From Candidatus Hydrogenedentota bacterium (lineage in GTDB: Bacteria; Hydrogenedentota; Hydrogenedentia; Hydrogenedentales; JAEUWI01), in NCBI GenBank assembly GCA_034669905.1, contig JAXMOL010000027.1:30511-94510 (forward strand): 64,000 nucleotides of DNA, given 5' to 3'. The notes beneath the pieces are model-generated. The model had not been told where the DNA came from. It did not search any database and was given only the letters and a program-made list of their open reading frames with translations. The position numbers and the translations under genes were made by a program. Positions 37,316-51,517 of this stretch are shown in pieces (the first letter of the stretch is position 1; every line of letters begins with the position of its first letter).

Positions 37316-39139
37316 CTATTCGCGCGTTGACTTGAATGTCTGCTTGTGGATGCGGGCTACTTCCACTTTCGATAAGCCCAGGATGCGGGCGGCCCGTTCG
37401 GCGTCTCCATCGCATTGGCGTACCACCGCCGCAATAAGGGTCTGCTCGGCATGTTCCAACGGGTCGAGACTTACTTCAGCGATACCGTGCTCCTGGGATT
37501 CACTATCGCTCAGATCTTCGCTCTCTATCCAGCTGCCCTTGCCTTGCCGGGCTGCACGGGTGATGGTCGCCTGCAACTCTGCCGCGTTTCCCCAGAGGGG
37601 CAGTTCCTCCAGGTATCCCAACGCATCTTCGGTGAGTCCTTCGACGCTGCGCGGTGCCCGTTTTCGCTCGTTATGGAGGAAGTGCTGTGCCAAGGCGCGG
37701 ATATCGGCCCTGCGATGGCGGAGCGGGGGGATCTGGAGGCGAATGCGGCTGAGGGCCTTCACCAGGTCGCCCCGAAACTTCCCGTCGGTTACCAGGGACT
37801 CCAACTCAACCCGGCTCGTCGTGATGACCCGCCCGTGAAAGGAGACTTCGCCGGTACTCCCGAGCCGAGCGAAGGTGCGTTGCGCCAACGTGCGCGAGAG
37901 CAATTGTTGGTTTTCCAGCGTCAGGGCACCCACTTCGCGCAGTATGAGTGTGCCGCCGTTGGCCTGATCCAACAGCCCCGCATCAATGATGCGTCCACTG
38001 GATTCGGTGGGACGTTCTTCCCCGAGGAGGGTGCGGGCGAAGGGCGGGCCCGCGATCGTTTCACAGTTGGCGGTGATTAACGGACCCCGTGGTACGGGAC
38101 TCTGGTGATGGATCATGCGGGCTGCCAGCACTTTTCCCGTGCCCCGTTCGCCGACTATCAGCGTGGTGAGGCGGGTTTGTGCGGCCGAACGGATTTCGGC
38201 GCGCAATGCCGAGGCACCCAGACTACGTCCCAAAAACCCGATCCGCTCGTCTTCCGGGATGAGTGAGACTTCGTCGGGTGTGCTGTCACCGTCGGAAGCC
38301 GCGATGGGATGAAGACCCGCCACACTGGCGACCGCATTGAGCCGGGCCAGGTCCGTTTCTTCCAAGACGGCTTCCCTCAATGCGGCCCGGAGTACGAAGG
38401 CACCCAGAACACCGTCGACGGTGCGAATTGGAGAGACGCAGATCTGCTGGGCGGCCTGAAAAGCGTGCTTGCGATCAAATTTCAAGAGGCTGCGCCCACC
38501 GCCCAGTACCTTGGCGACCTGCTTCAGGATTCTATCAGGTAAAACTTCCCCTTTGGGATAGATGTCGAGGGCTTGCGCCTGGCTACCGAGGCATACATGC
38601 ACCCGAACGCCGACGGGAAACAGATCCTGGATGCACTGGATGCAGTTTGCCGCATAATCGTGGGTGGAGCGGGTTCGATTGAGTTGACGACTCAGCTGAT
38701 AAAGGCGCACCATTTCCTGGGCGGATGCGGGGTATTCGAAATGGGCTTCTTTCGGGTCGTCACTGTCGAGTGAGATCGTGGTACTCAGTGATTGGGTGGT
38801 ATTGTCCGTGCGCGGCCGCGCGGTGTTGGACCCCGAAGCATCGGTTACAACCGACTGGGTAACGATGAAGACGTCGTTTCCCAGGGAGATCTCGTCGCCT
38901 ACGGACAGGGGACAGCGCTTCGCGATGCGCCCATTGACCAGGGTGACGTTTCGGCTTCCCAGATCACGAAAGTATAGTCCCGTTCCGTCAAAGGTGATTT
39001 CGCAGTGTCGCCGGGATACGGTGGGATCGTTGATGCTGATGTCGCAACTCAGACTGCGGCCCAGGGTTACGGGCTGCTCTCCGACGGACCAACTGACGCC
39101 GCGCCGGGTGCCTGTTTTTGCTGTGATCTGCCACGTCAT
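37316..39139 (-). CDS. FHA + GAF-like + sigma54-activator-like AAA+ + HTH regulator with degenerate catalytic motifs
   Basis: FHA (LGRS...VSRRH...DLGSRNVTLVNG), Walker A GERGTGK, IPPLRHRRADI, WGNAAEL and a Fis-type HTH (AARILGLS). Confidence 0.85.
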   Translation of the reverse strand: MTWQITAKTGTRRGVSWSVGEQPVTLGRSLSCDISINDPTVSRRHCEITFDGTGLYFRDLGSRNVTLVNGRIAKRCPLSVGDEISLGNDVFIVTQSVVTDASGSNTARPRTDNTTQSLSTTISLDSDDPKEAHFEYPASAQEMVRLYQLSRQLNRTRSTHDYAANCIQCIQDLFPVGVRVHVCLGSQAQALDIYPKGEVLPDRILKQVAKVLGGGRSLLKFDRKHAFQAAQQICVSPIRTVDGVLGAFVLRAALREAVLEETDLARLNAVASVAGLHPIAASDGDSTPDEVSLIPEDERIGFLGRSLGASALRAEIRSAAQTRLTTLIVGERGTGKVLAARMIHHQSPVPRGPLITANCETIAGPPFARTLLGEERPTESSGRIIDAGLLDQANGGTLILREVGALTLENQQLLSRTLAQRTFARLGSTGEVSFHGRVITTSRVELESLVTDGKFRGDLVKALSRIRLQIPPLRHRRADIRALAQHFLHNERKRAPRSVEGLTEDALGYLEELPLWGNAAELQATITRAARQGKGSWIESEDLSDSESQEHGIAEVSLDPLEHAEQTLIAAVVRQCDGDAERAARILGLSKVEVARIHKQTFKSTRE

Positions 39140-39638: not shown

Positions 39639-41369
39639 CTACCCCTGGGAGTCCGGGCTCTGCCAACGCCGGGAGCCGGTACGTCGGATTCGGGAACTGG
39701 AAAGCAGGATGGCGAGGAGGAGCCCGTAAGCTATTAGCGTGGGCAGGTTTTGTGGGCCCCTGCCCAGGGCAGGCATCAGGCCCGCACCCTGAGCGGGCAG
39801 GACTTCGGGGGGCCTCAGGGAAATAGTTCCCCCATGGCGCACCTGGAACTGCGCATAGGCCTGTCCATCGCGATAGACAGTATCGATGACGTCACTCTGC
39901 AGCCAGCCCGTAACGTCGGGGCCGGGGTGCCAGGAGGCGGTCTCCGGGAGCCACAGCCAGGGGATGAGCGTGCCGGGGGAAAGGATATCTTCCCGGGGTA
40001 TCAGCACGGTCCGGGTGGCCCCGTAGGGGCGCAAGGGGCGAAGCGCATAGGATGCTGCTGAGGGGTCGGTGAAGATGACCCGATTGGCTTCCTGCATGCT
40101 GGTTGTTTCGGGGGGGGCAGACCCTACGCTGGCATCGACGCGGAACGCGTATTCACGCGAATGGGCGGAGCTGCCATCCAATACCGGCGCACCGGCGGAT
40201 GCAACGATTCCCTGACCTTCCCGCCAGGCTTCGTCGGGGGTGACAACAACCCAGCCGTCGTTCAGTCCGACGGCCTGCCAGTGGACCCGGTAGGGTTGCT
40301 CTGATTCGAGGGAAACGGTCGCCCAGGCCTGGGTGTAGTCAATCACGCCGATAGCCCGGACTCGGAGGGCAAGAACGGCTTCGGGCCCGATGTAGATCTC
40401 CCCATAATGGACGGGTTCGTTTGGCAATACGGAAACCGTAACCCCCCCGGATTTCACGACCCCTTCCTCCCCGCGGTAACCCTGGTCTGAGGCACTGAAA
40501 TCACTCGTGCCGCAATCAAACACCGAGCGGACCCAATAGTAGTAGCGGGTTTCGCTGGTCGTGGGCGGGGGCGCGGGGCACCCCATCCCGGTAATGGTCT
40601 CGGGGGCCGCGGCGGTCGTATCGTCGAAACGCGTGGCACTGGTGCGCCCCAAGAGGCTGGCCCCACTACTCTGATTCCGCGTATTGCGATAAACTTCGTA
40701 TTCCAGCGCGCCGCTTACCGCATTCCAGGAAACGGTGACCCTATCCGCCGGGACCATGTCGGTCGCCTGAACGCCCGTGGGCGGGATGGCATCGCATTCG
40801 CCCTCTCCTTCCCCTTCCCCTTCCCCCTCTCCTTCTCCTTCACTACTCCCCATTGTGACCGTTATCTGCCCAGCGTCAATTTGATGAATCACCGTGGCGT
40901 TCCCAGTGGCATCGGAGAGCCATGAAGCCGTGGCCACCAAGGTGCGATCGCCCAGGTCGGCCGCGTCGTCGATGGCGAAGACCAGGTTGGCGAGGGTGTT
41001 ATTGGCCCCGAAATTCAGCCGACCGGAATAGGCGATAAAGCCTCCCATCGATTGGGAGCCAGACTCGAAGTCATAGCCGTCGACCACGAACCCACTCAGG
41101 CCCGCGCCCGGCGTCACGGATTCCAAGGTAAGGCCTTCTGGAAGGGGGAACTCGAAATGGAGGCCTCCGTAAGTAGACGTGGTTTCACCAATCGACAAGG
41201 GGACGGATACAGATTCACCGGCAGCAGCATCGACGGTGCCGAGCGAGAAGGGCACCTGGGCAAAAGAGGGCACCACGGCGAAAAGCAGCGCCGCGAAGAA
41301 AGTAAGGGCGAGGTGGTTCGCCAGCCGCCCCCGTTCATGTTGTGTCCTGTCATTTCGCCGGGTTTTCAT
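39639..41369 (-). CDS. Secreted, C-terminally anchored protein: cohesin-like domain, EG linker, FN3-like domain
   Basis: Signal peptide; LGTVDAAAGESVSVPLSI...LANLVFAI...DAGQITV (cohesin-like); EG tract; VTVSWNAVSGALEYEVYR...YYYWVRS (FN3); final hydrophobic helix plus Arg-rich tail. Confidence 0.75.
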   Translation of the reverse strand: MKTRRNDRTQHERGRLANHLALTFFAALLFAVVPSFAQVPFSLGTVDAAAGESVSVPLSIGETTSTYGGLHFEFPLPEGLTLESVTPGAGLSGFVVDGYDFESGSQSMGGFIAYSGRLNFGANNTLANLVFAIDDAADLGDRTLVATASWLSDATGNATVIHQIDAGQITVTMGSSEGEGEGEGEGEGEGECDAIPPTGVQATDMVPADRVTVSWNAVSGALEYEVYRNTRNQSSGASLLGRTSATRFDDTTAAAPETITGMGCPAPPPTTSETRYYYWVRSVFDCGTSDFSASDQGYRGEEGVVKSGGVTVSVLPNEPVHYGEIYIGPEAVLALRVRAIGVIDYTQAWATVSLESEQPYRVHWQAVGLNDGWVVVTPDEAWREGQGIVASAGAPVLDGSSAHSREYAFRVDASVGSAPPETTSMQEANRVIFTDPSAASYALRPLRPYGATRTVLIPREDILSPGTLIPWLWLPETASWHPGPDVTGWLQSDVIDTVYRDGQAYAQFQVRHGGTISLRPPEVLPAQGAGLMPALGRGPQNLPTLIAYGLLLAILLSSSRIRRTGSRRWQSPDSQG

Positions 41370-41415
41370 GATGCGTTCCGTGACGGTGTTGTTGCGATGC
41401 GGTTTCCGTGTGAGC

Positions 41416-42834
41416 TTATCCCTTGGGTAGTGTGAGTCGTGCGCCGGACTCCGTTACGAGCACCAGTTTGCTGGGGGCACCGAGATCGGCCTGAACTTCC
41501 ACCCGGGCGAAGCGTTCGCCATTTGCCGCCAGACCGGTAAGGCTCTTGGGCAGGGCCGCACGTTGTTCGGGTGTTGATTTCGCTTCTGTAACACCATTCA
41601 CCGCCTGGGCAGTCAGGGTGCCCACGCCGGGCGGTACGGTCAGCGAAACGGTCGCCGTACTGGCGTCGAAGGTGCCCATGGCCGCCGCCGTCGCACTGGT
41701 GACGGCACCGAACTCCGGCCGTGCGAAAACGGTCACGATCGTGTCTGGCAACAAGTCCTGGCAGGAGACCACTACGGTCATGGGATTGGTTTCCGTAATT
41801 GGAAGCAGAATGTCCGGGCTGGCCAGGTCTCCTGTGGGGTTCGCGGGTGCCGCCATACCGGCTACACTGGTGATCGCCAAATCAGGTTGGAGGTTGTCGG
41901 GCAGCATGAGGATGCCGGCGCCTCCCGCTGTGGTGGCGGCACCGCTGATGGTGCCGGTAAATTCGGTCAGCCGTCCTTCCAGGCGTATGCGGCCTTGACC
42001 GCCCCCATTGCCAGCGTCGCCGCCGCTGCCGCCCAGGGCGGTTATGGTGCCTGTGCCGAAGATGTTGGGCGACGCGACCCGGAGTGCACCACCACTACCG
42101 CCGCCACTACGACCGCTGAAAGAGGGATTCGCACCGCTGCCGCCGCGGGCACTGAGGGTTCCATTCACGGTCACACTTTCATTGGCTGCGACAAAGAAGG
42201 CGCCACCGCCCCCGCCGCCACCGGCACCCTGCGTGCGGCCCCCGCCGCTACCGCCCGAGCCGCCAATGAGGGGCAATAGAAAGATGCTTCCATACGTGTT
42301 GCCAGGCGGGTGGTACGTCGAGGGGGAATTGGCTCCCCCGCCCGCTGTACCGTAAGAACCCCCGCCGCCCCGTTTGTCGTCTCCGGCAGAGACACCCGCA
42401 CCGCCCGGTCCGAGGCCCGGCCCGGGGTCAGTATCCACGTCAAAGGGGGCGCCATCCCCCCCTTCAAAACCACCGGGACCACCGGCGCCGCCCTGGAAGT
42501 CAATAGAGCCGTTGGTCGGGGGGGCACTGCCATCCACGCTGACATTGCCGTCGATCAGGCAGGTGGACTGGACCAACCACGTGACCGGTGTATTCTCGGC
42601 GTTGGGAAGGAAGGTGATGGTCACACCCGCGGGGATGTTCACGCTGACATATTGGTAGACGCCATCCGGATGGTCGGCCATATCGATCAGCATGTCTGAC
42701 ACGGGGGCCAGAACCCCGTCGCTTCCGTCACTGCCAGCGTCAAATTGGGCGTTGGCGCTGATTGCCCCGCCGACGAGTAACGCGGTCAGCAGGGTGCACA
42801 GCACCGTACTTCGTTGTCGATTGATGGTTCGCAT
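41416..42834 (-). CDS. Secreted Gly-rich hypothetical protein
   Basis: RBS GGAGA before ATG 42834; signal peptide ending ANA-Q; repeated GGSGG/GGGGGG stretches alternating with short beta strands; Ig-like C-terminus. Confidence 0.75.
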   Translation of the reverse strand: MRTINRQRSTVLCTLLTALLVGGAISANAQFDAGSDGSDGVLAPVSDMLIDMADHPDGVYQYVSVNIPAGVTITFLPNAENTPVTWLVQSTCLIDGNVSVDGSAPPTNGSIDFQGGAGGPGGFEGGDGAPFDVDTDPGPGLGPGGAGVSAGDDKRGGGGSYGTAGGGANSPSTYHPPGNTYGSIFLLPLIGGSGGSGGGRTQGAGGGGGGGAFFVAANESVTVNGTLSARGGSGANPSFSGRSGGGSGGALRVASPNIFGTGTITALGGSGGDAGNGGGQGRIRLEGRLTEFTGTISGAATTAGGAGILMLPDNLQPDLAITSVAGMAAPANPTGDLASPDILLPITETNPMTVVVSCQDLLPDTIVTVFARPEFGAVTSATAAAMGTFDASTATVSLTVPPGVGTLTAQAVNGVTEAKSTPEQRAALPKSLTGLAANGERFARVEVQADLGAPSKLVLVTESGARLTLPKG

Positions 42835-42919
42835 CGTTCTATCTCCCAAACGTGGTGTTTTCACCCAGGTTCGAATCGTGTGGTGCTGCCTGCCCGAGCG
42901 CGGGCCTGTTTTTCGGTTT

Positions 42920-44620
42920 CTATTCATACTGGTAGCTCAGCCCCTCGCTTAGTCCAAACAGGTCGCCGATGCCTGACTCGCCGGGTGCGTAGTAGTGATA
43001 ACTCACCGGGGGCGAAAGCTGAAAGAGATCGGAATCCCCCTCCGAACCGCTGACAAAATACCGGTAGCTTACCGGGGGACTGAATCCGATTATTTGCGAG
43101 CCATCGGTTGACCCTGCCGCGAAGTAGCGATAGCTGACGGCGGGACTGATACCGAAGACGTCGGCACCACTCTCCGAGCCTGCCGCAAAATAGCGGTAGC
43201 TCACGGGCTCACTGTAGGTCGCTGTTGGTGCGCCGCCTTCGGCATCGGCCGAGAAGAAGCGGTAGCTCACCCCGCGGGATGCCGCCATGCCGACCGGTGC
43301 GATCTGGGCGTCCAGTGGATCCCCTCCGTTGTCCAATTCTTCGCCATCACCAAACCCATCGCCATCCGTGTCCGCGTTGAAGGGGTTCAGTCCCAGGGGG
43401 ATTTCAGCCGCATCGCTGAGACCATCTTCGTCGCCGTCCTCCAGGCTGTCAGGTATTTCATCGCCATCACTATCGGCCAGGGTGGGATCAAAGCCGAGGA
43501 CAAACTCGACCCAGTCGGGGACTTCGTCGCTGTCGCCATCTTCCTCGCCATCAGGTATTTCATCGCCATCGCTATCCGGATTGGTCGGGTCGAATCCGAG
43601 AAACAGTTCCACGCCATCAGGGACCCCATCCTCATCCAAATCTTCCAACGCGATGGGGCTGAGGATGATAATTCCGGCGTCTGTCGTAAAGCCGGGCAGG
43701 AGAGGAAGCTCCTGGACCGCCCCAATCAGGAGAATCCCCTGGGTGCTCTGTTTGTCTGGGCCGGAATCATTAAACCGCGCGGTCACGGTGATGGTGTCGG
43801 TGAGTGCCGTGGCCACGTCGGTGAAGCGGAACATACCATCTTCATCGGAAAGTACACTGCGACTTTGCTCGGGTAGGGTAACCGTCGCACCAACAACCGG
43901 GGAGCCGTCATCCCGCAGCGTCAGTCCTTCCACCGTGGTCAGCGGATCGCCGGGAGAAACGATAATGCGGGTGACCGACGCCGCACCTTCATTGGTGGCC
44001 GTGACAAAGGCCGAGCCCGCGCCGGTGGCAATAACCAACCCATCTTCCGTTACGGTTGCAATGTCTGTGTTGCTGCTGCGATAGGTGGTCCAGGCGATTT
44101 GGGGGGTGACATCCTGCTGACTGCCATTGGCGAGGGTTGCTGTAACGCGGACCTGCGTCGTGGCACCCAGCATGGTCAGGGTGGGCGTGTCCGGTAGGGC
44201 CTGTATTCGCACGGGCAGGGGTGGCGGCAGGGTTGTGAAGACAAGCGATTGGGGATCGATGAAGACCGTCTGGCCCTGAACGACGAGGAAAGGCTCACTG
44301 AACACGTACTCGGTCACATCGCCCACCATTCGAAAGCCGGTGAGGCGCGTGAAATCATCGCTGACGAAGTCAGGACGGGTTCCGGGCCCGCCCGGGCCAA
44401 AGCTATCGGGCGCGCTGATGTTCGTTATACGGAAAGAGCCGTCGGGATTGGGCACCACCGTTTGGCCACGCACGGTTATGGTCCAGGATTCATCCAATTG
44501 GGCCACCGCGCAGGGCGTGCAATACAGGAGCAATGCCAGGCACAGCAGGGGCAACACGAGCCGCCCCGTTCGGGTGCCCGTAAGGTGTCGCGTCCTATGT
44601 GGGTATTCAGGATGGTGCAT
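42920..44620 (-). CDS. Secreted protein: Big_2-like Ig, carboxypeptidase-regulatory-like domain, TSP3-like Ca-binding repeats, 22-aa C-terminal repeats
   Basis: YRSSNTDIATVTEDGLV, GSPVVGATVTL...SDEDGMFRF, DxDGDxxPDxxE repeats and VSYRYF repeats. Confidence 0.8.
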   Translation of the reverse strand: MHHPEYPHRTRHLTGTRTGRLVLPLLCLALLLYCTPCAVAQLDESWTITVRGQTVVPNPDGSFRITNISAPDSFGPGGPGTRPDFVSDDFTRLTGFRMVGDVTEYVFSEPFLVVQGQTVFIDPQSLVFTTLPPPLPVRIQALPDTPTLTMLGATTQVRVTATLANGSQQDVTPQIAWTTYRSSNTDIATVTEDGLVIATGAGSAFVTATNEGAASVTRIIVSPGDPLTTVEGLTLRDDGSPVVGATVTLPEQSRSVLSDEDGMFRFTDVATALTDTITVTARFNDSGPDKQSTQGILLIGAVQELPLLPGFTTDAGIIILSPIALEDLDEDGVPDGVELFLGFDPTNPDSDGDEIPDGEEDGDSDEVPDWVEFVLGFDPTLADSDGDEIPDSLEDGDEDGLSDAAEIPLGLNPFNADTDGDGFGDGEELDNGGDPLDAQIAPVGMAASRGVSYRFFSADAEGGAPTATYSEPVSYRYFAAGSESGADVFGISPAVSYRYFAAGSTDGSQIIGFSPPVSYRYFVSGSEGDSDLFQLSPPVSYHYYAPGESGIGDLFGLSEGLSYQYE

Positions 44621-45521
44621 TGTTTCCCGTTTGCTCAGCCGAGGTGTCGGTGGCGATGACGAGGTCGAGTTGCTTTTTCAAGGTGATCCACTCGGGATGG
44701 AGCGTCGTGCTCCCCCGATTTTTTAAGGCCTGGTCCATCCACATGGCCGCAACCCGGGGTTGGGGAGGGCGGTTTCCATGGAGGTCAAGGGCGTTTCCCT
44801 GGGCCATCATGTAGGCGACGACCATTTGGGCCCAGCCGGTATAGGGACTGGACGAGGACATGCGCGCCAGTTCCTGGAAGGCCCGAAAGTCTTTTTCTTG
44901 CGTGACGTGGGCCACTGCAGCCGGATGAGCGAGCAACCACGGCTTCTCCAGCCGTCGCAATTTTTGAAGGGCGGTGGAGCCGGGGCCACTGGCAGGTGAA
45001 ATCGGGAGCGTAAGGGTGTTGCTGTTCCGGGTGTTTTCCCGGTCCAGTGGGGCTATCTCCGCGTCTTTGTCGGCCCAGCCACTGAAGCGGGCCTCCACGA
45101 GGAGTTGCTTCCCGGTGATAAGAGAGACCACCGCATCGGGCTTCCAGTCGTGGCTGAGGACAACGACTTCTTCCCAGGCATCACCGGCGGCCAGCACTAA
45201 GTCGGTGGGGGGCTCGGGGGGCAGGCCTTCCTTCCAGGGAGCAAAGTTGGGCACAACATACTGGAGGGGCCGCATGGACGCGGAATCAGTCCCCACATAG
45301 AGGTCGATGCTATGGTAGGGGTTGTCCCGCGTGCTGAGCGAAGGGGCAGGGATGGTGATAGCCGCGTCGCTTTTGTTGACCACGCTCACCTGGAGCAAAA
45401 TGGGGATTTCGGGGTAATAGGGGGCGTCGGATAGGGGTGCCAGTTCCACGGTAATTCCCGCAGGGACCGTCCCCAGCGCGACGATCCCAGTGAGGGCAAG
45501 CGTGCAATACATACTCATCAC
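44607..45521 (-). CDS. Secreted hypothetical protein (candidate partner/inhibitor of the upstream protease)
   Basis: RBS GAGGAG, N-terminal hydrophobic signal, EIPILLQVSVVNKS beta domain; starts about 20 nt after the stop of the giant gene. Confidence 0.7.
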   Translation of the reverse strand: MMSMYCTLALTGIVALGTVPAGITVELAPLSDAPYYPEIPILLQVSVVNKSDAAITIPAPSLSTRDNPYHSIDLYVGTDSASMRPLQYVVPNFAPWKEGLPPEPPTDLVLAAGDAWEEVVVLSHDWKPDAVVSLITGKQLLVEARFSGWADKDAEIAPLDRENTRNSNTLTLPISPASGPGSTALQKLRRLEKPWLLAHPAAVAHVTQEKDFRAFQELARMSSSSPYTGWAQMVVAYMMAQGNALDLHGNRPPQPRVAAMWMDQALKNRGSTTLHPEWITLKKQLDLVIATDTSAEQTGNNAPS

Positions 45522-45542
45522 GGCGTCTATTCTCCTCAATGG

Positions 45543-48500
45543 TCAGGATTTAGGACGGGTCAACTTACGTAGCTCGTCCAGGTGTCGATCGATAAACTTG
45601 GCATTGGCGGCATCGGGCGCCGACTGGGCGCTGGTATTCATGATGCCGTTCACATTCGGTTGATTCATGTTGTTTCCATGGTCCAGCCGCATGGCGTGGC
45701 CGACTTCGTGGGTGACCACGCGGTTTTCTACACCGGCCAGCATGCCATCTGCGGTAGGTCCCCGTTCCCGCAGGGTTTCCAGGTAAATCAACGAACCGCC
45801 CACGCCGGCTGTACTGCCCCCCGTGCCCCCTTCGGAGTCGGGATCCATATCCCGCTGCATCATCCGGAAGGAGTCCTGCAACGCGGAGAGCACATAGACC
45901 ACCCAGAATCGGTTGGTGTTGTTGGCACGGGACTCCCACTTGTAGACGGCCGAACTCTCGGTGTTCAGGACCACGGGCACGGTATGTTTGTTGTTGGAAG
46001 CGGCCCCACCACCATCGAAAACGGGCCGGATATAGGCGGTCGCATAGGGATTCAAGGTGGGGTCGTCGGAGGCCTGCATGAAGTCGAAGCGGGAGTTTCG
46101 TGGCAGCACCCCGGCGCCATCGTCGTCGGCAATGCGGCACGGAATGGTCTTCAGGGGGTTCACCGTGACCTGATTGTTGTCCACATCCTGGGCGGAAATG
46201 GTAAAGGCGACCCCGGCGACCGTGAGGGTGCCGCCCGTGAATCCGCCTGTCATGGTGCCGTCGGTGACGTTGAGGGTAAAGACGGCTCCTGCCCAGCTGA
46301 CAATCTGGCCGGACACCGTGGCAGGGGGTGGGGCCGGCAGGGCGGGCGGCACCGCGGTGAAGGGCAAGGTGAAGCCTTCATTTTTTTGAACAAAGTCGGC
46401 CCCATTCCCGAGGATGTCACTGCTCTCTACACCCGCACCCGCGCCAACAAATACAGACCCGTTCTCGAAGCGCCCATTACCCCCGGACATGTCGTTGGTA
46501 TCGGCCATGCCATTGCCGGTGGTGTCCTGCCGGGGCAGAATGTTGCCGGTAAAATTCAGATGGGTGGCCACTCCACCGGTGCTGGCGATTTCATGGATCT
46601 GGACGATGACACTGTTGGCCTGGGCGGTCGGGGGGTTGGGAGGCGCCACCATGGAATCGACTTCTACATGCATGAAACGCCAGACAGTCAATAGGTTGGA
46701 GGCGTACATGGTCGCGTTGCGCACTTCCTTATCCGCTGGCGTGCCGGAGATGGCGGGGTCAATGATACGAAGTTTATCGACATTGGCAGCGCCCAGGGTA
46801 CTGTCTTTGTTTTCGAGAATCTGGATGAAGTCCTTGTCGCCGTTTCCGGCAATCCGGAAGTTGTCGCCCGGCTGAATGGTGGTCTGAAATTCAACGCTTT
46901 CCATCTTGTTGGTGAAGGTATGCTCCAGGATGCCCGCCGCTTCCATTGTAAACTTCCCGGTCTGCGCCGGGTCCGTCCCGCGGTTGTCTTCATCTCTTGT
47001 ATCGTCATCAATGTCGCCCATGGCAGCAGTGGGGTCGTCCACGTCAAAGGAATCGAAGTAGATTTTCAGGGCTTCGATAGGTTTCACACTGAGGATCACT
47101 TCGACATCTACCTTGTTGCGTGGCGTCGCTTCCAGGGTGCTGCCCACCACCCGCGCACCGGGGAATACCCGGAGGGCCGAAGGCAGCAGGCCCGATGGGT
47201 GGTTGGGTTCCGCGTCGAGGACGTTGGTATTGGTCAGGCTGTTCGATTTGCCTTTCCACTGAATGCTTTCAATGCCGACGACGGTGATGGCGACTTCGTC
47301 GTCTTTGCTGTCGATCTGGTCATAGGTAAACTTCAACACCGTACCCTGGGGACTGCTATGGGGTGCGATCCCTTCGACCCAACAGGAAGTCTCCCAGCCG
47401 TCTGCGGTCTCGGTGAAGCCGCCGGGGACGGGTACGTCGGTACCGGAGCTGTACTCTTCCTGCTTATTCGCTTTCGTCCAGATGCGCACATTCGCACCGC
47501 CGGAGGTGGCGGTGAGCCGGGCAACGCCGGGCTTAATCATCTTCCCCTTGAGTTTCAGGACGACTTTCACCAATTCGTCATCGGCCACGTCGATATCGCC
47601 AACGCCGAGATCAAAGTTTCCATCCCGGTCATCATTGTCGAGGTTCACAAAGGTCTGGGCGCCCAGGCTGCGTTCGACGGCGTCCGGTACCTGCGGCTCG
47701 GCGGGGTGGGTGACCTTGGGTTTGTGGAGATCCAGTTCCAAGTCCACCACATAGATGTCGGCACGGGGAAGGACGAGCTCGGGCGGTGGGCAATCCCGGT
47801 CGGCGTTGGCCTTGAATTCGACAGAGTACTTGCCCGGTGCGCTGGGGAAGTGGGTCGCGATGACGCCTTGACCAGAGGCCACGGCCCCGCCATCGTCCTG
47901 AAAAATCTGCCAGGTCAAGTCGGGGGTAACAGGCGGGATCAACATGGACTGGGCACTGATGATTTCCCCCTCTTCGTCGCGACAGACTTCGTCCATGACG
48001 CCGCCGTTGTCGACCACAGGAGAGACGAGGGACCAGGTAATGGCCTGGCCGATACAGACCACATCCTTATCCTGGAAGGGCATGATGGTGCCACCGCTGA
48101 GGCTTCCGGTCTCAACGCAGCTGGTGGTACATCCGGGCTCGCCTTCGCCCTCCCCTTCACCTTCCCCTTCACCCTCGCCTTCCCCTTCGCCCTCGGTACC
48201 ACTTTCACAGTCGCCCGACACCGCGTAGGGGGGGCAATTGCAGCCCCAACCAGCCACGGACAACCCGGAACCCTGGTCACTCAAGATGGATAGTCCGTCT
48301 GCGGTGACACTTCCGGAAGAGACGATCTCAAAGGCCCCGGTGTCGTGGTTGAAACTCAAGAAGTAGGCAATGGCCCCCGCCGGGAGACCGGACATATTGG
48401 GATAGGTGATGGAGATCGGCGGATCAAAGGTGGCGCCGCTGGGCTGGAGGGTCCACGCAAAGGGCGGTGCCGCCCCATCGGGCATGGGCATGGGCACTTC

Positions 48501-50441
48501 GTCGTCATGGACCTGGTTGAGCGCGAGAATCGTGGGATTGCCGGGGCCGGGGACCGTGCCGTCGGCGAGTGTCATGGAGCCCGCCTGGATCAACATCTCG
48601 AGTCCATCGATTTCTTCGACGGTGAGGATAATATTTTCCGTATTGTCGAAGCTCCGCGCGTTGTTGGGATTGAGCGAAGGCAGCAAGACCGGCATAGGCA
48701 GCGCGTTTTCGGCATTGGGGACAAGGACGGGCTCAAAGGCCAGCGCGGGGAAGCTTCCCGGGGAAATGGGGACACCATTCACCGCCGTGGCGACGAGTCC
48801 GTCTATATGGAGGTGGGCCGCGCCGCTGGGTATATCGACAAAAGAGAATTGCCCGAGCTCGTCGCTGTGGGTTTCGAAGGAGTCATCCCGGATGTCCAAT
48901 ACGACATGGGCGCCTTCAATGGGTTGGCGGGCGTTGTCCAGCACGATGCCCATAAAGCGTGTGGGATTGGCGGGGTCCCGTTCCAGACCGCGCACGACAA
49001 AGGTGGCGGGAAGACCGGGGTTGCCCTCAAAATCGGCTTCAACGATGTTGTTCATCGTGAGGGGGCCCGGGATGAATTCCACCGACGCGTGGCCGGTCAC
49101 ACTGGAATCGATAGTGACGGACGACGCGCCATTGACGAGCCCGCCGCCTGCGACGACACGGAACGTGATGGGCACGTTGGGGATACCATTGCAGGAATCG
49201 TTGACCCACGCACGGAGGGGCTCTGGCGCGGGGCTTCCCACTTCGACCCGTTGATTGTTGCCCGAGCCCACATTGATCTGCGAACTGGGACCGGGCAAGG
49301 CAGAGGCGCAGAAGAACACCGTACCGTTTACATTCTTACCGGTCACCCGGAGTCGGTTGTTGCCACACCCGGCATCGCTACCCGTGGCCCAGAATACGGA
49401 GGCGACTCCGGTGCTGTCCGTGCGCACCTGGCGCATGAGGCCACCGCTGGTGCCTTTGGCATCGGTGTAGAGCCGACCATTACTGCGGGTTACTTCGAAG
49501 GTGATGAGCTTGTTGGGCAGGGGACGACCATCGTCCAGTGTCGCGCGGATAGCCACGGGCAGGGGAAGCATGGTGTCCACCATGCTTTCCTGACCATTTC
49601 CGAGGAAGGCGGCCATCTGGGGACCGGAAAGGGCCACCCGGGTGACCTGTATGGTGGCTGTCGCTTCATTACCGAGGACGTCCGTCGCGCGGACCGTGAT
49701 CGTGTTTTCACCCAGCGCCAGGGGGACTGCACCCCGCTCGTAAGTGCCGTTGGTCCCAATGCCGACCGCCACGTTTCCGGGCGCGCCGTTCACCGTGACC
49801 TCGAGGCCCATGAAGCCACTCAGCATATCGCTGACGCGGCCGGCCACGTCGATGGTCTCGTTGGTGAGTTCGGCACCATCATCGGGGAAGTCGATAAATA
49901 CGGAAGGGGGTTGGGCGTCGTGGATAATGAGCAGCGGCGAGGGCGCACTTTCGGGGCCGTTGGCACCCATAACACTGACGAAGAGGCGATTGAGCTGATT
50001 GGGTTTCAATTCCACCTCAATCTGGAAGTTTCCATTTGCATCGGCGACACCGGCAACGGTTTCCACGCCGCCGCGTATTTCTAACGCGCTCATGGGTGCC
50101 GCAGTACCGGTAACCGTGATGGTGGTGGCATTCGTCGGGGAAGTGAGCGGATCGACAAGCGGGGCGCTTACGGGAGCCAGCATGCGGGCGATGAATACGA
50201 GATCGGCCACATCCACCGCGCCGTCTTCATTGGCATCCGCATCGGTGAGGGCACTGCCCGTCAGGAGGGTTTCCTGTCGCAGGTGCGCGAAGAGTGCGTC
50301 GCGATCGGTGACCCCCACCATACCATCCGCATCGATGTCGCCGGGCCCGGCCACCGCGTTGCCCGTCAGCATCAGGAGCAGCATCCCTCCAAGAAGTCCT
50401 TGGAAAGTCGTCGTCCTGCGAGCTATGACACGCGAGAACAC
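45543..50441 (-). CDS. 1632-aa secreted protein: dockerin, several Ig-like domains, EG linker, C-terminal metzincin Zn-metallopeptidase motif
   Basis: GDIDADGMVGVTD...DANEDGAVDVADL (paired dockerin loops); Big_1-like GNGQ/SGNNQ domains; EG tract; HEVGHAMRLDH followed by a Met-turn-like GIM. Confidence 0.82.
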   Translation of the reverse strand: MFSRVIARRTTTFQGLLGGMLLLMLTGNAVAGPGDIDADGMVGVTDRDALFAHLRQETLLTGSALTDADANEDGAVDVADLVFIARMLAPVSAPLVDPLTSPTNATTITVTGTAAPMSALEIRGGVETVAGVADANGNFQIEVELKPNQLNRLFVSVMGANGPESAPSPLLIIHDAQPPSVFIDFPDDGAELTNETIDVAGRVSDMLSGFMGLEVTVNGAPGNVAVGIGTNGTYERGAVPLALGENTITVRATDVLGNEATATIQVTRVALSGPQMAAFLGNGQESMVDTMLPLPVAIRATLDDGRPLPNKLITFEVTRSNGRLYTDAKGTSGGLMRQVRTDSTGVASVFWATGSDAGCGNNRLRVTGKNVNGTVFFCASALPGPSSQINVGSGNNQRVEVGSPAPEPLRAWVNDSCNGIPNVPITFRVVAGGGLVNGASSVTIDSSVTGHASVEFIPGPLTMNNIVEADFEGNPGLPATFVVRGLERDPANPTRFMGIVLDNARQPIEGAHVVLDIRDDSFETHSDELGQFSFVDIPSGAAHLHIDGLVATAVNGVPISPGSFPALAFEPVLVPNAENALPMPVLLPSLNPNNARSFDNTENIILTVEEIDGLEMLIQAGSMTLADGTVPGPGNPTILALNQVHDDEVPMPMPDGAAPPFAWTLQPSGATFDPPISITYPNMSGLPAGAIAYFLSFNHDTGAFEIVSSGSVTADGLSILSDQGSGLSVAGWGCNCPPYAVSGDCESGTEGEGEGEGEGEGEGEGEGEPGCTTSCVETGSLSGGTIMPFQDKDVVCIGQAITWSLVSPVVDNGGVMDEVCRDEEGEIISAQSMLIPPVTPDLTWQIFQDDGGAVASGQGVIATHFPSAPGKYSVEFKANADRDCPPPELVLPRADIYVVDLELDLHKPKVTHPAEPQVPDAVERSLGAQTFVNLDNDDRDGNFDLGVGDIDVADDELVKVVLKLKGKMIKPGVARLTATSGGANVRIWTKANKQEEYSSGTDVPVPGGFTETADGWETSCWVEGIAPHSSPQGTVLKFTYDQIDSKDDEVAITVVGIESIQWKGKSNSLTNTNVLDAEPNHPSGLLPSALRVFPGARVVGSTLEATPRNKVDVEVILSVKPIEALKIYFDSFDVDDPTAAMGDIDDDTRDEDNRGTDPAQTGKFTMEAAGILEHTFTNKMESVEFQTTIQPGDNFRIAGNGDKDFIQILENKDSTLGAANVDKLRIIDPAISGTPADKEVRNATMYASNLLTVWRFMHVEVDSMVAPPNPPTAQANSVIVQIHEIASTGGVATHLNFTGNILPRQDTTGNGMADTNDMSGGNGRFENGSVFVGAGAGVESSDILGNGADFVQKNEGFTLPFTAVPPALPAPPPATVSGQIVSWAGAVFTLNVTDGTMTGGFTGGTLTVAGVAFTISAQDVDNNQVTVNPLKTIPCRIADDDGAGVLPRNSRFDFMQASDDPTLNPYATAYIRPVFDGGGAASNNKHTVPVVLNTESSAVYKWESRANNTNRFWVVYVLSALQDSFRMMQRDMDPDSEGGTGGSTAGVGGSLIYLETLRERGPTADGMLAGVENRVVTHEVGHAMRLDHGNNMNQPNVNGIMNTSAQSAPDAANAKFIDRHLDELRKLTRPKS

Positions 50442-50755: not shown

Positions 50756-51517
50756 TTAGGGTGCCGGAATCCAGACTTCGCGGGTTTCGTAAACGGGTGC
50801 GATTTCACGTTGGCGGGTCTCATAGTGGCCTACCACCACTTCGCCCGTCGCCGGAATGGTGTACTGGGGAACCCACACACGATATTCCTCGGTGCGCCCT
50901 TCCTGGACGAGAATACGTTGCTGCTGGACATGGCCGCGGGGGGCAGCAGGCGCCTGTACGGCATGGACCCGTTGCTGTTGGTTGGTCGCAAGAATGCCCA
51001 CCACGTTGACCACCGCATTGGCAATGGCTGCGTCCCGGTAGGCTTTTGCATGGGCCTTCTCGCCCGCATAGGGGTCGAAATTGCGTCCGCCACCATATTC
51101 GTTGTAGAGGTACTGCTCCAAGAGTCCGCCGAGGGGGCCACCGTTACCAATACCGTTACCGCCATAGCCCAGGCCACGGCGATTGCCATTGCCGATACCG
51201 GGGTAGTTACCGATTCGGTTGGCGCTCCGGGCACCGCCGAGGCTGCCATTGCGGTTGGCACTTCGGGCACCGCCGAGGCTGCCGTTGCGATTGGCACTCC
51301 GGGCACCTCCGATGCTGGCCGTTGTGCGTCGTGCACTGCTCATGCTGCGGGGTGCCCCGCGGAAGGAGCGGCTGGGTGATGCGATGGGTGCACGGGCCTT
51401 ACTCACGTTGAGGTTGGGGCCGGTACGCCGGAACTTGGAGGCCCCCTGGGCTTCGGCATAGCCGAAGGACATAAGGGTCATACACATGGCTGCAATTAGA
51501 ATCCGTTCTTTCATCAT
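50756..51517 (-). CDS. Secreted low-complexity protein with 12-aa tandem repeats and a YXWGXW-like C-terminus
   Basis: Signal peptide; about 3 copies of GGARSANRNGSL; EYRVWVP...GHYE...EVWIP. Confidence 0.75.
   Translation of the reverse strand: MMKERILIAAMCMTLMSFGYAEAQGASKFRRTGPNLNVSKARAPIASPSRSFRGAPRSMSSARRTTASIGGARSANRNGSLGGARSANRNGSLGGARSANRIGNYPGIGNGNRRGLGYGGNGIGNGGPLGGLLEQYLYNEYGGGRNFDPYAGEKAHAKAYRDAAIANAVVNVVGILATNQQQRVHAVQAPAAPRGHVQQQRILVQEGRTEEYRVWVPQYTIPATGEVVVGHYETRQREIAPVYETREVWIPAP

Follow-up and report, generated by a model that had tools for sequence, protein, structure and literature searches.

In a 64,000-nucleotide stretch of DNA from a Candidatus Hydrogenedentota bacterium (assembly GCA_034669905.1, contig JAXMOL010000027.1, positions 30,511 to 94,510), hereafter the window, five closely spaced genes lie on the minus strand at positions 39639..50441. 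With a probability of about 0.6, we read this locus as encoding a surface-displayed polymorphic effector, which would combine a carrier bearing an exchangeable payload (module A, in gene 1), a clasp between module A and a partner (module B, in gene 3), an inhibitor (gene 2) and a cohesin anchor (gene 5), and which would likely be directed against competing cells. Gene 1 would be the secreted carrier, in which an immunoglobulin (Ig)-stalk/ZU5 module is followed by the payload, here probably a zinc protease. A preliminary description, made from the letters of the DNA, had taken the five genes for a candidate cohesin-dockerin complex carrying a protease. Its secreted, multi-subunit surface apparatus with a protease is retained here, and the five genes and their domains are real, yet the conserved unit is the A/B pair, not cohesin and dockerin and not the five-gene set. 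That description contained neither the ZU5 fold nor the pairing of A with B nor the exchangeable payload.

Module A and its ZU5 fold

The carrier gene and the parts of it that bear on the clasp are as follows.

45543..50441, minus strand: gene 1, 1632 amino acids (aa); signal peptide, dockerin, module A carrier, (EG)n linker and a payload with a metzincin-type peptidase end
48207..50174, minus strand: module A, gene 1 aa ~90-745; Big_6, Glucodextran_B-type Ig, two intimin/invasin-like Ig domains, a transthyretin-like domain and a ZU5 fold; end motif GWGCNCPPY
48228..48671, minus strand: ZU5-fold domain, gene 1 aa 591-738; predicted docking surface for B, without an HFS/SFS motif

Pfam matches Dockerin_1, Big_6, Glucodextran_B and CarboxypepD_reg in gene 1. 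A search with aa 270-745 returned 455 proteins, with 52-64% identity in 120/120 of the matches listed. Among these 120, similarity to gene 1 stops at GWGCNCPPY, with coverage falling from 120 hits at aa 701 to 22 at aa 751 and 2-3 from aa 951. The structural model of aa 270-745 (predicted local distance difference test score, pLDDT, 91; predicted template modelling score, pTM, 0.80) comprises two intimin/invasin-like Ig folds (Z 12.7), a transthyretin-like domain and a ZU5 domain. The latter (model residues 322-469) matches the ankyrin ZU5 structure 3f59 with a Z score of 10.0, a root-mean-square deviation of 2.7 and 122/149 residues aligned; 6m3q and 3ud1 are further structure matches. No ZU5 match was found at the sequence level by Pfam or by a sequence search of solved structures. 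Sequence searches of solved structures with A, its ZU5 part and gene 4 gave nothing useful, and Foldseek with the four-domain A model returned generic Ig chains only. No relatives of module A were found on viral contigs. A wider family of giant surface proteins (L126-L128, L096-L099), with up to 11 matches per genome, combines a transthyretin-like domain with a ZU5-type domain that ends in GWH; behind the latter come variable inserts rich in Cys, together with LVIVD, TSP3 and Big domains.

One alternative is a classical autoprocessing toxin, in which ZU5 would cut the chain at its own end and free the payload, B only holding the precursor. This role was assigned to ZU5 by Zhang et al. (2012; PMC3482391), and the ZU5 fold of module A ends exactly at the payload junction. 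Furthermore, a His ~30 residues ahead of the last ZU5 strand is conserved in 68/71 alignment rows, and the CNC cysteines in 63/71 and 70/71. According to the passages of PMC3210808 considered here, self-cleavage takes place at H/S-F|S, immediately ahead of the last strand. No such site was found in module A: the corresponding stretch, in a strand register read from the model's secondary structure rather than from a residue-level superposition, is x-A/S-G-W, and its Gly and Trp (G462 and W463 in alignment numbering) are invariant in 71/71 rows. Because of this stretch, canonical ZU5 autoproteolysis of module A appears unlikely. In addition, the first CNC cysteine is Gly in 7/71 rows, and distant members carry GWH or GWG. 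We regard the autoprocessing toxin as very unlikely, and return to a ZU5 domain that would dock a partner.

Module B and its linkage to module A

The putative partner lies in the third gene.

42920..44620, minus strand: gene 3, 566 aa; module B, TSP3-like Ca-binding repeats and C-terminal S-x-x-V-S-Y repeats
43655..44500, minus strand: module B, gene 3 aa 41-322; N-terminal domain of ~93 aa, Big_2 and a transthyretin-like domain; predicted partner of A

The Big_2/TSP3-repeat protein of the preliminary description was recovered here by Pfam, which matches Big_2, CarboxypepD_reg and, weakly, TSP3 (TSP3_bac, E 0.002) in gene 3. Module B was modelled with a pLDDT of 95 and a pTM of 0.85. Its first 93 residues are not spanned by the fold matches listed, and its cluster-atlas matches were Big_2 clusters only, all under 0.9.

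A survey of A loci, with one genome taken for each species, yielded 129 confirmed stretches, and the analysis used the best 80. Most of the 80 belong to Planctomycetota and Verrucomicrobiota; further hosts are Acidobacteriota, Hydrogenedentota, Gemmatimonadota, Methylomirabilota, Kiritimatiellae, Lentisphaerales, one Deltaproteobacterium and one Gammaproteobacterium. B is linked to A in 65/80 loci, being fused behind the payload in 29, encoded by a downstream gene in 33 and by an upstream gene in 3. As for the remainder, 14 stretches end within the gene or less than 3 kb from it, and a single locus (1/80) is without B. Among 135 genomes of the phylum, B was matched in 11, the same 11 that have strong A matches, and 22 of the 23 B matches adjoin an A match, the 23rd lying in a frame open at a contig end. 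Among 301 sampled genomes of Verrucomicrobiota class, four of the five B matches adjoin an A-type ZU5. Even distant A types of ~35% identity (L100, L123, L124) keep the order of A with payload, small secreted gene and B.

Fused loci and split loci intermingle across the A tree, revealing repeated fusion and fission: on a quick tree with 60/71 rows labelled fused or split, the state changes 14 times, and at least 6 of these changes are forced by starred branches. In fused chains, the clasp would turn the payload segment into a closed loop, and in split forms it would join the payload chain to an adhesin chain. The tails behind B are of adhesin type, with FG-GAP, RCC1, LamG, IgGFc-binding, NIDO and Big_5 domains among the 63 tails scanned. 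The present genome has a second locus (L001, 7575-13832, G000:C7), a fused A-insert-B protein with a PKD N-terminus, no dockerin, an FG-GAP tail and a helical insert without a Pfam match. Genes for DUF6851/VCPO vanadium haloperoxidase-like or PAP2 proteins stand behind B, directly after the loci L060, L065, L084, L057 and L112.

Predicted A:B complex

Modules A and B are predicted to bind each other. The predicted complex scored 0.81, and the best of three control pairings 0.01; a score of 0.81 is reached by 116/157 solved complexes and 2/215 mismatched pairs, counts that are only a rough guide for alignments of our own. At least 87% of the contacts agreed between prediction runs, with a partner pLDDT of at least 83. 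The A side of the predicted interface is formed by the second Ig, transthyretin-like and ZU5 domains, and it includes the most conserved ZU5 motifs of A. Interface residues of B are more conserved than the rest of B (0.60 vs 0.49, p=0.001). To our knowledge, no complex of this kind has been solved, and sequence searches against solved structures found none resembling A:B.

The payload slot and its exchange

Everything in gene 1 behind the end motif of module A belongs to the payload.

45546..48206, minus strand: payload, gene 1 aa 746-1632; aa 1050-1632 form a mobile module ending in HEVGHAMRLDH and a Met-turn
45678-45710, minus strand: zinc motif HEVGHAMRLDH, gene 1 aa 1578-1588; Met at 1601

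The metzincin motif named in the preliminary description is present, as HEVGHAMRLDH with Met1601 and with R where metzincins have G; the protease is, however, one of many exchangeable payloads in the family. No Pfam peptidase family matched the gene 1 payload. A search with aa 1050-1632 found 1087 relatives among cluster representatives (E<=0.001). Of the 150 best, 94 keep HExxHxxxxxH and 69 have G at position 8; Peptidase_M10 or reprolysin (M10/M12) was matched by 5 of the 31 relatives scanned. The payload is thus likely a metzincin-type zinc protease, to judge from its motif and relatives. An A-type core carries the module in only 6/150 of the best relatives, and by this sequence distribution the module is mobile.

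The same slot holds very different proteins elsewhere. A Pfam scan of 75 payloads (74 loci and the window) matched PLA2-like domains in 10, RHS in 6, M10/M12 in 2, and M74, M15, an alpha/beta hydrolase and a phosphodiesterase in one each. Payloads are exchanged between close relatives: no payload similarity could be detected for P0131 and P0133, P0157 and P0169, or P0160 and P0167, although their cores are 92.5%, 93.9% and 80.4% identical, respectively. The family therefore displays two of the features by which polymorphic toxins are recognised, namely a conserved N-terminal stalk with a variable C-terminal domain, and exchange of that domain between close relatives together with its occurrence on other carriers. 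No payload swap between near-identical strains was seen in mapped reads.

Gene 2 as a candidate immunity protein

44607..45539, minus strand: gene 2, longest open reading frame (ORF) 310 aa, likely ~303 aa; secreted; candidate cognate immunity protein or inhibitor of the protease

The preliminary description had taken the genes other than the protease and the cohesin for structural subunits, a view that does not suit gene 2, which looks like a payload-specific immunity protein. It has 9 homologues in all and diverges faster than its neighbour, with 70-72% identity where gene 1 has 91%. A lone copy stands in one genome (G069, 94% complete), in which the payload was not found. Its cluster-atlas matches are unnamed Acidobacteriota and Planctomycetota clusters, some of them TPR-like (0.91). 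Across split loci, 14 of 37 payloads end with HExxH, and the next ORF is something other than B in all 14; 13 of these 14 ORFs have a hydrophobic N-terminus, the candidate of L019 being doubtful. Behind two Rhs payloads (L023, L076) lie small genes that lack a hydrophobic N-terminus, as expected for cytoplasmic immunity. In nine split loci B follows the payload directly, three of these cases having been recognised by eye. Gene 2 is likely the cognate inhibitor of the protease, as its sequence pattern suggests, and would in this way protect the producer.

The main rival to an antagonistic effector is a nutritional, planctosome-like surface degradosome, in which both binding pairs would hold hydrolases that digest proteins, lipids and cell-wall debris, and gene 2 would act as a chaperone or as a pro-domain in trans. 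Payloads are often hydrolases, B tails could bind substrate, and a thermolysin domain occurs in one further dockerin protein encoded by the same genome. Arguments of this kind led to the proposal of the planctosome (Andrei et al., 2019; PMC6461901), and ZU5 surface proteins for biopolymer remodelling were noted by Zhang et al. (2012; PMC3482391). Conflict is nevertheless the better fit for Rhs shells that bear toxin-like tips and have small genes behind them, for payload exchange between near-identical cores, and for a gene 2 that evolves fast and is sometimes an orphan; moreover, none of the 75 payloads matched a glycoside hydrolase in the Pfam scan. We consider a degradosome unlikely, and an effector aimed at competitors remains the preferred reading.

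Dockerin, cohesin and gene 5

50178..50345, minus strand: dockerin, gene 1 aa 33-88; optional N-terminal module
39639..41369, minus strand: gene 5, 576 aa; cohesin, (EG)n linker, FN3-like part and C-terminal module with a transmembrane (TM) helix; candidate anchor
40857..41249, minus strand: cohesin, gene 5 aa 41-171

According to Pfam, the locus has both a cohesin domain and a dockerin, the latter with two Ca-binding loops, as the preliminary description had proposed. In the profile search, Dockerin_1 scored 25.2 bits (cut-off 22.9), and the cohesin scored 23.4 bits with the whole protein, below its cut-off of 24.1, and 27.3 bits in the genome scan, above it. The dockerin of gene 1 would likely attach the assembly to gene 5, by way of its membrane-anchored cohesin. 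Gene 5 aa ~190-569 match the ends of 1000-6800-aa frames in related genomes, an end module that is common to giant surface proteins of its own family.

The tether is not a constant part of the system. A dockerin was detected in 16 of 66 pre-core regions of A and went undetected in 50. Of 96 neighbouring genes scanned with Pfam, 3 matched cohesin (L017, L033, L034), and a four-seed cohesin profile run over all ORFs added L043; these are dockerin-bearing Verrucomicrobiota loci from three genomes. Neighbouring cohesin genes were thus detected only in these four dockerin-bearing loci and the window, with none found beside A in dockerin-free loci or in the 10 dockerin-bearing loci of Planctomycetota type. 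Cohesins are scarce in such genomes, with ~4-5 matches per 7-10 Mb in four of five and 14 in the fifth. Loci with both domains fall in three places of the A tree; because L017, L033 and L034 form one clade, these, L043 and the window amount to about three independent cases. At their ends, the cohesin proteins of L017, L033 and L034 carry a short module that we take to be typical of secreted Verrucomicrobiota proteins. A dockerin-cohesin tether, optional and likely an anchoring add-on, is plausible from this co-occurrence. Since the present genome has 4 dockerin and 5 cohesin matches, other pairings are possible.

Other cohesin or dockerin proteins of this genome stand at L108 9012-11430 (G000:C68), L111 4844-5980, L109 4781-8629 and L110 1212-6965. 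Among them are cohesin proteins with C-terminal TM tails, three consecutive matches lying at the end of a contig, and dockerin proteins, one of them a thermolysin.

Gene 4 and the tail repeats

41416..42927, minus strand: gene 4, longest ORF 503 aa, likely ~470 aa; secreted Gly-rich accessory; candidate binder of the gene 3 repeat tail

Gene 4 has 1261 homologues and presumably resembles polyglycine-II adhesin tips; a PHROGs search gave one weak match to a family of unknown function. Short strand-like repeats are visible by eye, where sequences were printed, in the neighbours of gene 4 in the window, L018, L025, L035, L052 and L127, although a pattern search for tail repeats missed L035 and L052. 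Neighbours in L086, L090, L091 and L092 have N-terminal repeats, and none were seen in the first 200 residues of those in L089 and L094. Gene 4 homologues adjoin proteins with SSREVS/SPVVSY-like repeats (L107 2112-5492, G000:C5; L086, L090, L091, L127). Gene 4 is accordingly a candidate repeat-binding module, independent of the A:B pair, and that it would bind the tail repeats of gene 3 is a lead only, drawn from this neighbourhood pattern.

Reality of the locus and its surroundings

The five ORFs were found exactly where the preliminary description had placed them, with lengths of 1632, 310, 566, 503 and 576 aa. From gene 1 to gene 5, the intergenic gaps between the longest ORFs are +3, -14, -8 and +46 nt, and a later ATG is probably the true start of genes 2 and 4. 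Signal peptides were called by eye in all five, and Pfam matched nothing in genes 2 and 4. The earlier remark that a glycoside hydrolase motif is lacking agrees with the Pfam scan, in which no catalytic family of that kind was matched among the window proteins. Parts of all five genes are found on short contigs from 4 other runs in 4 studies, which span the junctions 2/3, 3/4 and 4/5, and the same five-gene order recurs on two metagenome contigs at 70-91% identity. Because three of four junctions are bridged in other runs and the order is repeated on these two contigs, the locus is not an assembly artefact. The nearest genome record is a Candidatus Hydrogenedentota metagenome-assembled genome at 92% identity (L005).

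The five-gene set as such did not prove conserved: gene 2 is present in 1/80 loci and gene 4 in 5/80, and gene 5 has no full-length counterpart in any of the 79 loci that lie outside the sister species. The preliminary description had named a lack of synteny in other genomes as a finding that would refute it, and for three of the five genes this is what was observed. These counts bear on the fixed five-subunit cohesin-dockerin complex proposed earlier, and on a related possibility, a purely adhesive or self-recognition display whose variable part serves as an identity tag. The five-gene order is kept in close relatives, cohesin and dockerin occur together in 5 loci, and many payloads are without an enzyme signature. 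Genes 2, 4 and 5 are, however, absent from nearly all loci, most A N-termini (50/66) have no detected dockerin, and catalytic motifs are kept in many payloads. We judge this the least probable of the readings weighed here, and hold to the polymorphic effector.

As to the surroundings, a promoter scan found 3 sites against 3.5 expected. A gene for an FHA and sigma-54 activator protein lies 500 bp downstream of gene 5 (window 37316-39139). Upstream lies a gene for a secreted Gly/Arg-rich protein with three short tandem repeats (window 50756-51517), also found upstream in L117, and beyond it a DUF1800/DUF1501 pair.

Evidence against the effector reading, and a possible extension

Several observations weigh against an antagonistic effector built on the A:B pair. 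Regarding the pair itself, one Verrucomicrobiota B match has no A beside it (L125), the wider ZU5 family of giant surface proteins is without the N-terminal domain of B, and the A interface is not significantly more conserved than the rest of A (0.68 vs 0.64, p=0.10). As regards the payload, 39/75 have no Pfam match, some being Cys-rich and apparently non-catalytic, and the payload is kept in 9/11 core pairs at 90-99% identity and in 6/7 at 80-89%. No tandem orphan toxin cassettes were recognised in flanks of up to 10 kb of the 80 loci, which were viewed without a profile search, and two or three extra small genes occur in L035, L040 and L076. Concerning immunity, the toxin-like payloads of L081, L083 and L084 are directly followed by B, the 29 fused loci, including all 10 Pfam PLA2 matches, have no slot for an immunity gene, and the intervening genes matched no named immunity family. 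As for the tether, no cohesin was seen in 12/16 dockerin-bearing loci, two of them short Verrucomicrobiota contigs. Finally, in L018 (3295-9517) and L025 (11456-17655), A ends three residues past the core and a radical SAM/methyltransferase-like cluster lies between A and B, together with a gene for a PH-domain protein and a possible precursor whose tail is hydrophobic and of low complexity. This is a candidate peptide-modification cluster in the payload slot.

A broader proposal can be put forward tentatively, with more doubt than confidence. A:B might be a high-affinity coupling that amounts to a second "cohesin-dockerin", based on a bacterial ZU5 that does not cleave. In Planctomycetota, Verrucomicrobiota, Hydrogenedentota and others, it would join any toxin or enzyme payload to any adhesin tail, as one looped chain or as two. 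Where a genome has several loci, such as the three of G068, payloads and targeting tails could then be mixed, and L018 and L025 may display modified peptides by means of this clasp.

Comparison with known systems

Modules A and B provide a marker for a secreted-effector family in mostly uncultured bacteria, and the payload slot a list of candidate new enzymes or toxins, notably the 39/75 without a Pfam match, with candidate inhibitors adjacent. A clasp tolerant of such different inserts could become a protein-engineering tool, and one non-cellulosomal cohesin-dockerin pair is placed in a testable context.

The nearest likeness is to the ZU5 polymorphic toxins (Zhang et al., 2012; PMC3482391), which share the signal peptide, a conserved N-terminal part with ZU5, a variable C-terminal enzyme or Rhs, and a small downstream gene, here a putative cognate one. 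In the passages of that paper considered here, ZU5 is an autopeptidase, mostly in an SpvB/beta-propeller (TcdB/TcaC) context, and no B-like partner appears; module A, in contrast, has no HFS motif, its ZU5 would, by the prediction, dock a partner of its own, and A and B can flank the payload within a single chain. With the planctosome (Andrei et al., 2019; PMC6461901) and the cellulosome-like complex of Ca. Stygibacter (PMC8542988), the locus shares non-cellulosomal cohesin and dockerin, a Zn peptidase, TSP3 repeats and a proposed surface display. As far as the portions of these papers considered here go, both are scaffoldin-centred hypotheses on nutrition, whereas here gene 5 has a single, optional cohesin rather than the several of a scaffoldin, and a constant A:B pair is combined with an exchangeable payload and its putative cognate gene.

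As in eukaryotic ZU5-UPA proteins (ankyrin, UNC5, PIDD, CARD8/NLRP1; PMC3210808), the ZU5 fold would serve as a docking surface, comparable to ankyrin-spectrin in 6m3q. Unlike those proteins, as characterised in the part of PMC3210808 used here, module A is extracellular and bacterial, has an Ig/transthyretin partner, and lacks a death domain and the SFS/HFS site. A docking, non-cleaving bacterial ZU5 bears on the origin of the eukaryotic ZU5 adaptors. ZU5 is mentioned only in general terms in PMC8195603 and is not mentioned in PMC12419801, and no description of the A:B pair was found in the open-access literature. The A:B coupling appears to be undescribed, and the locus is otherwise a variant of polymorphic toxin/effector systems.

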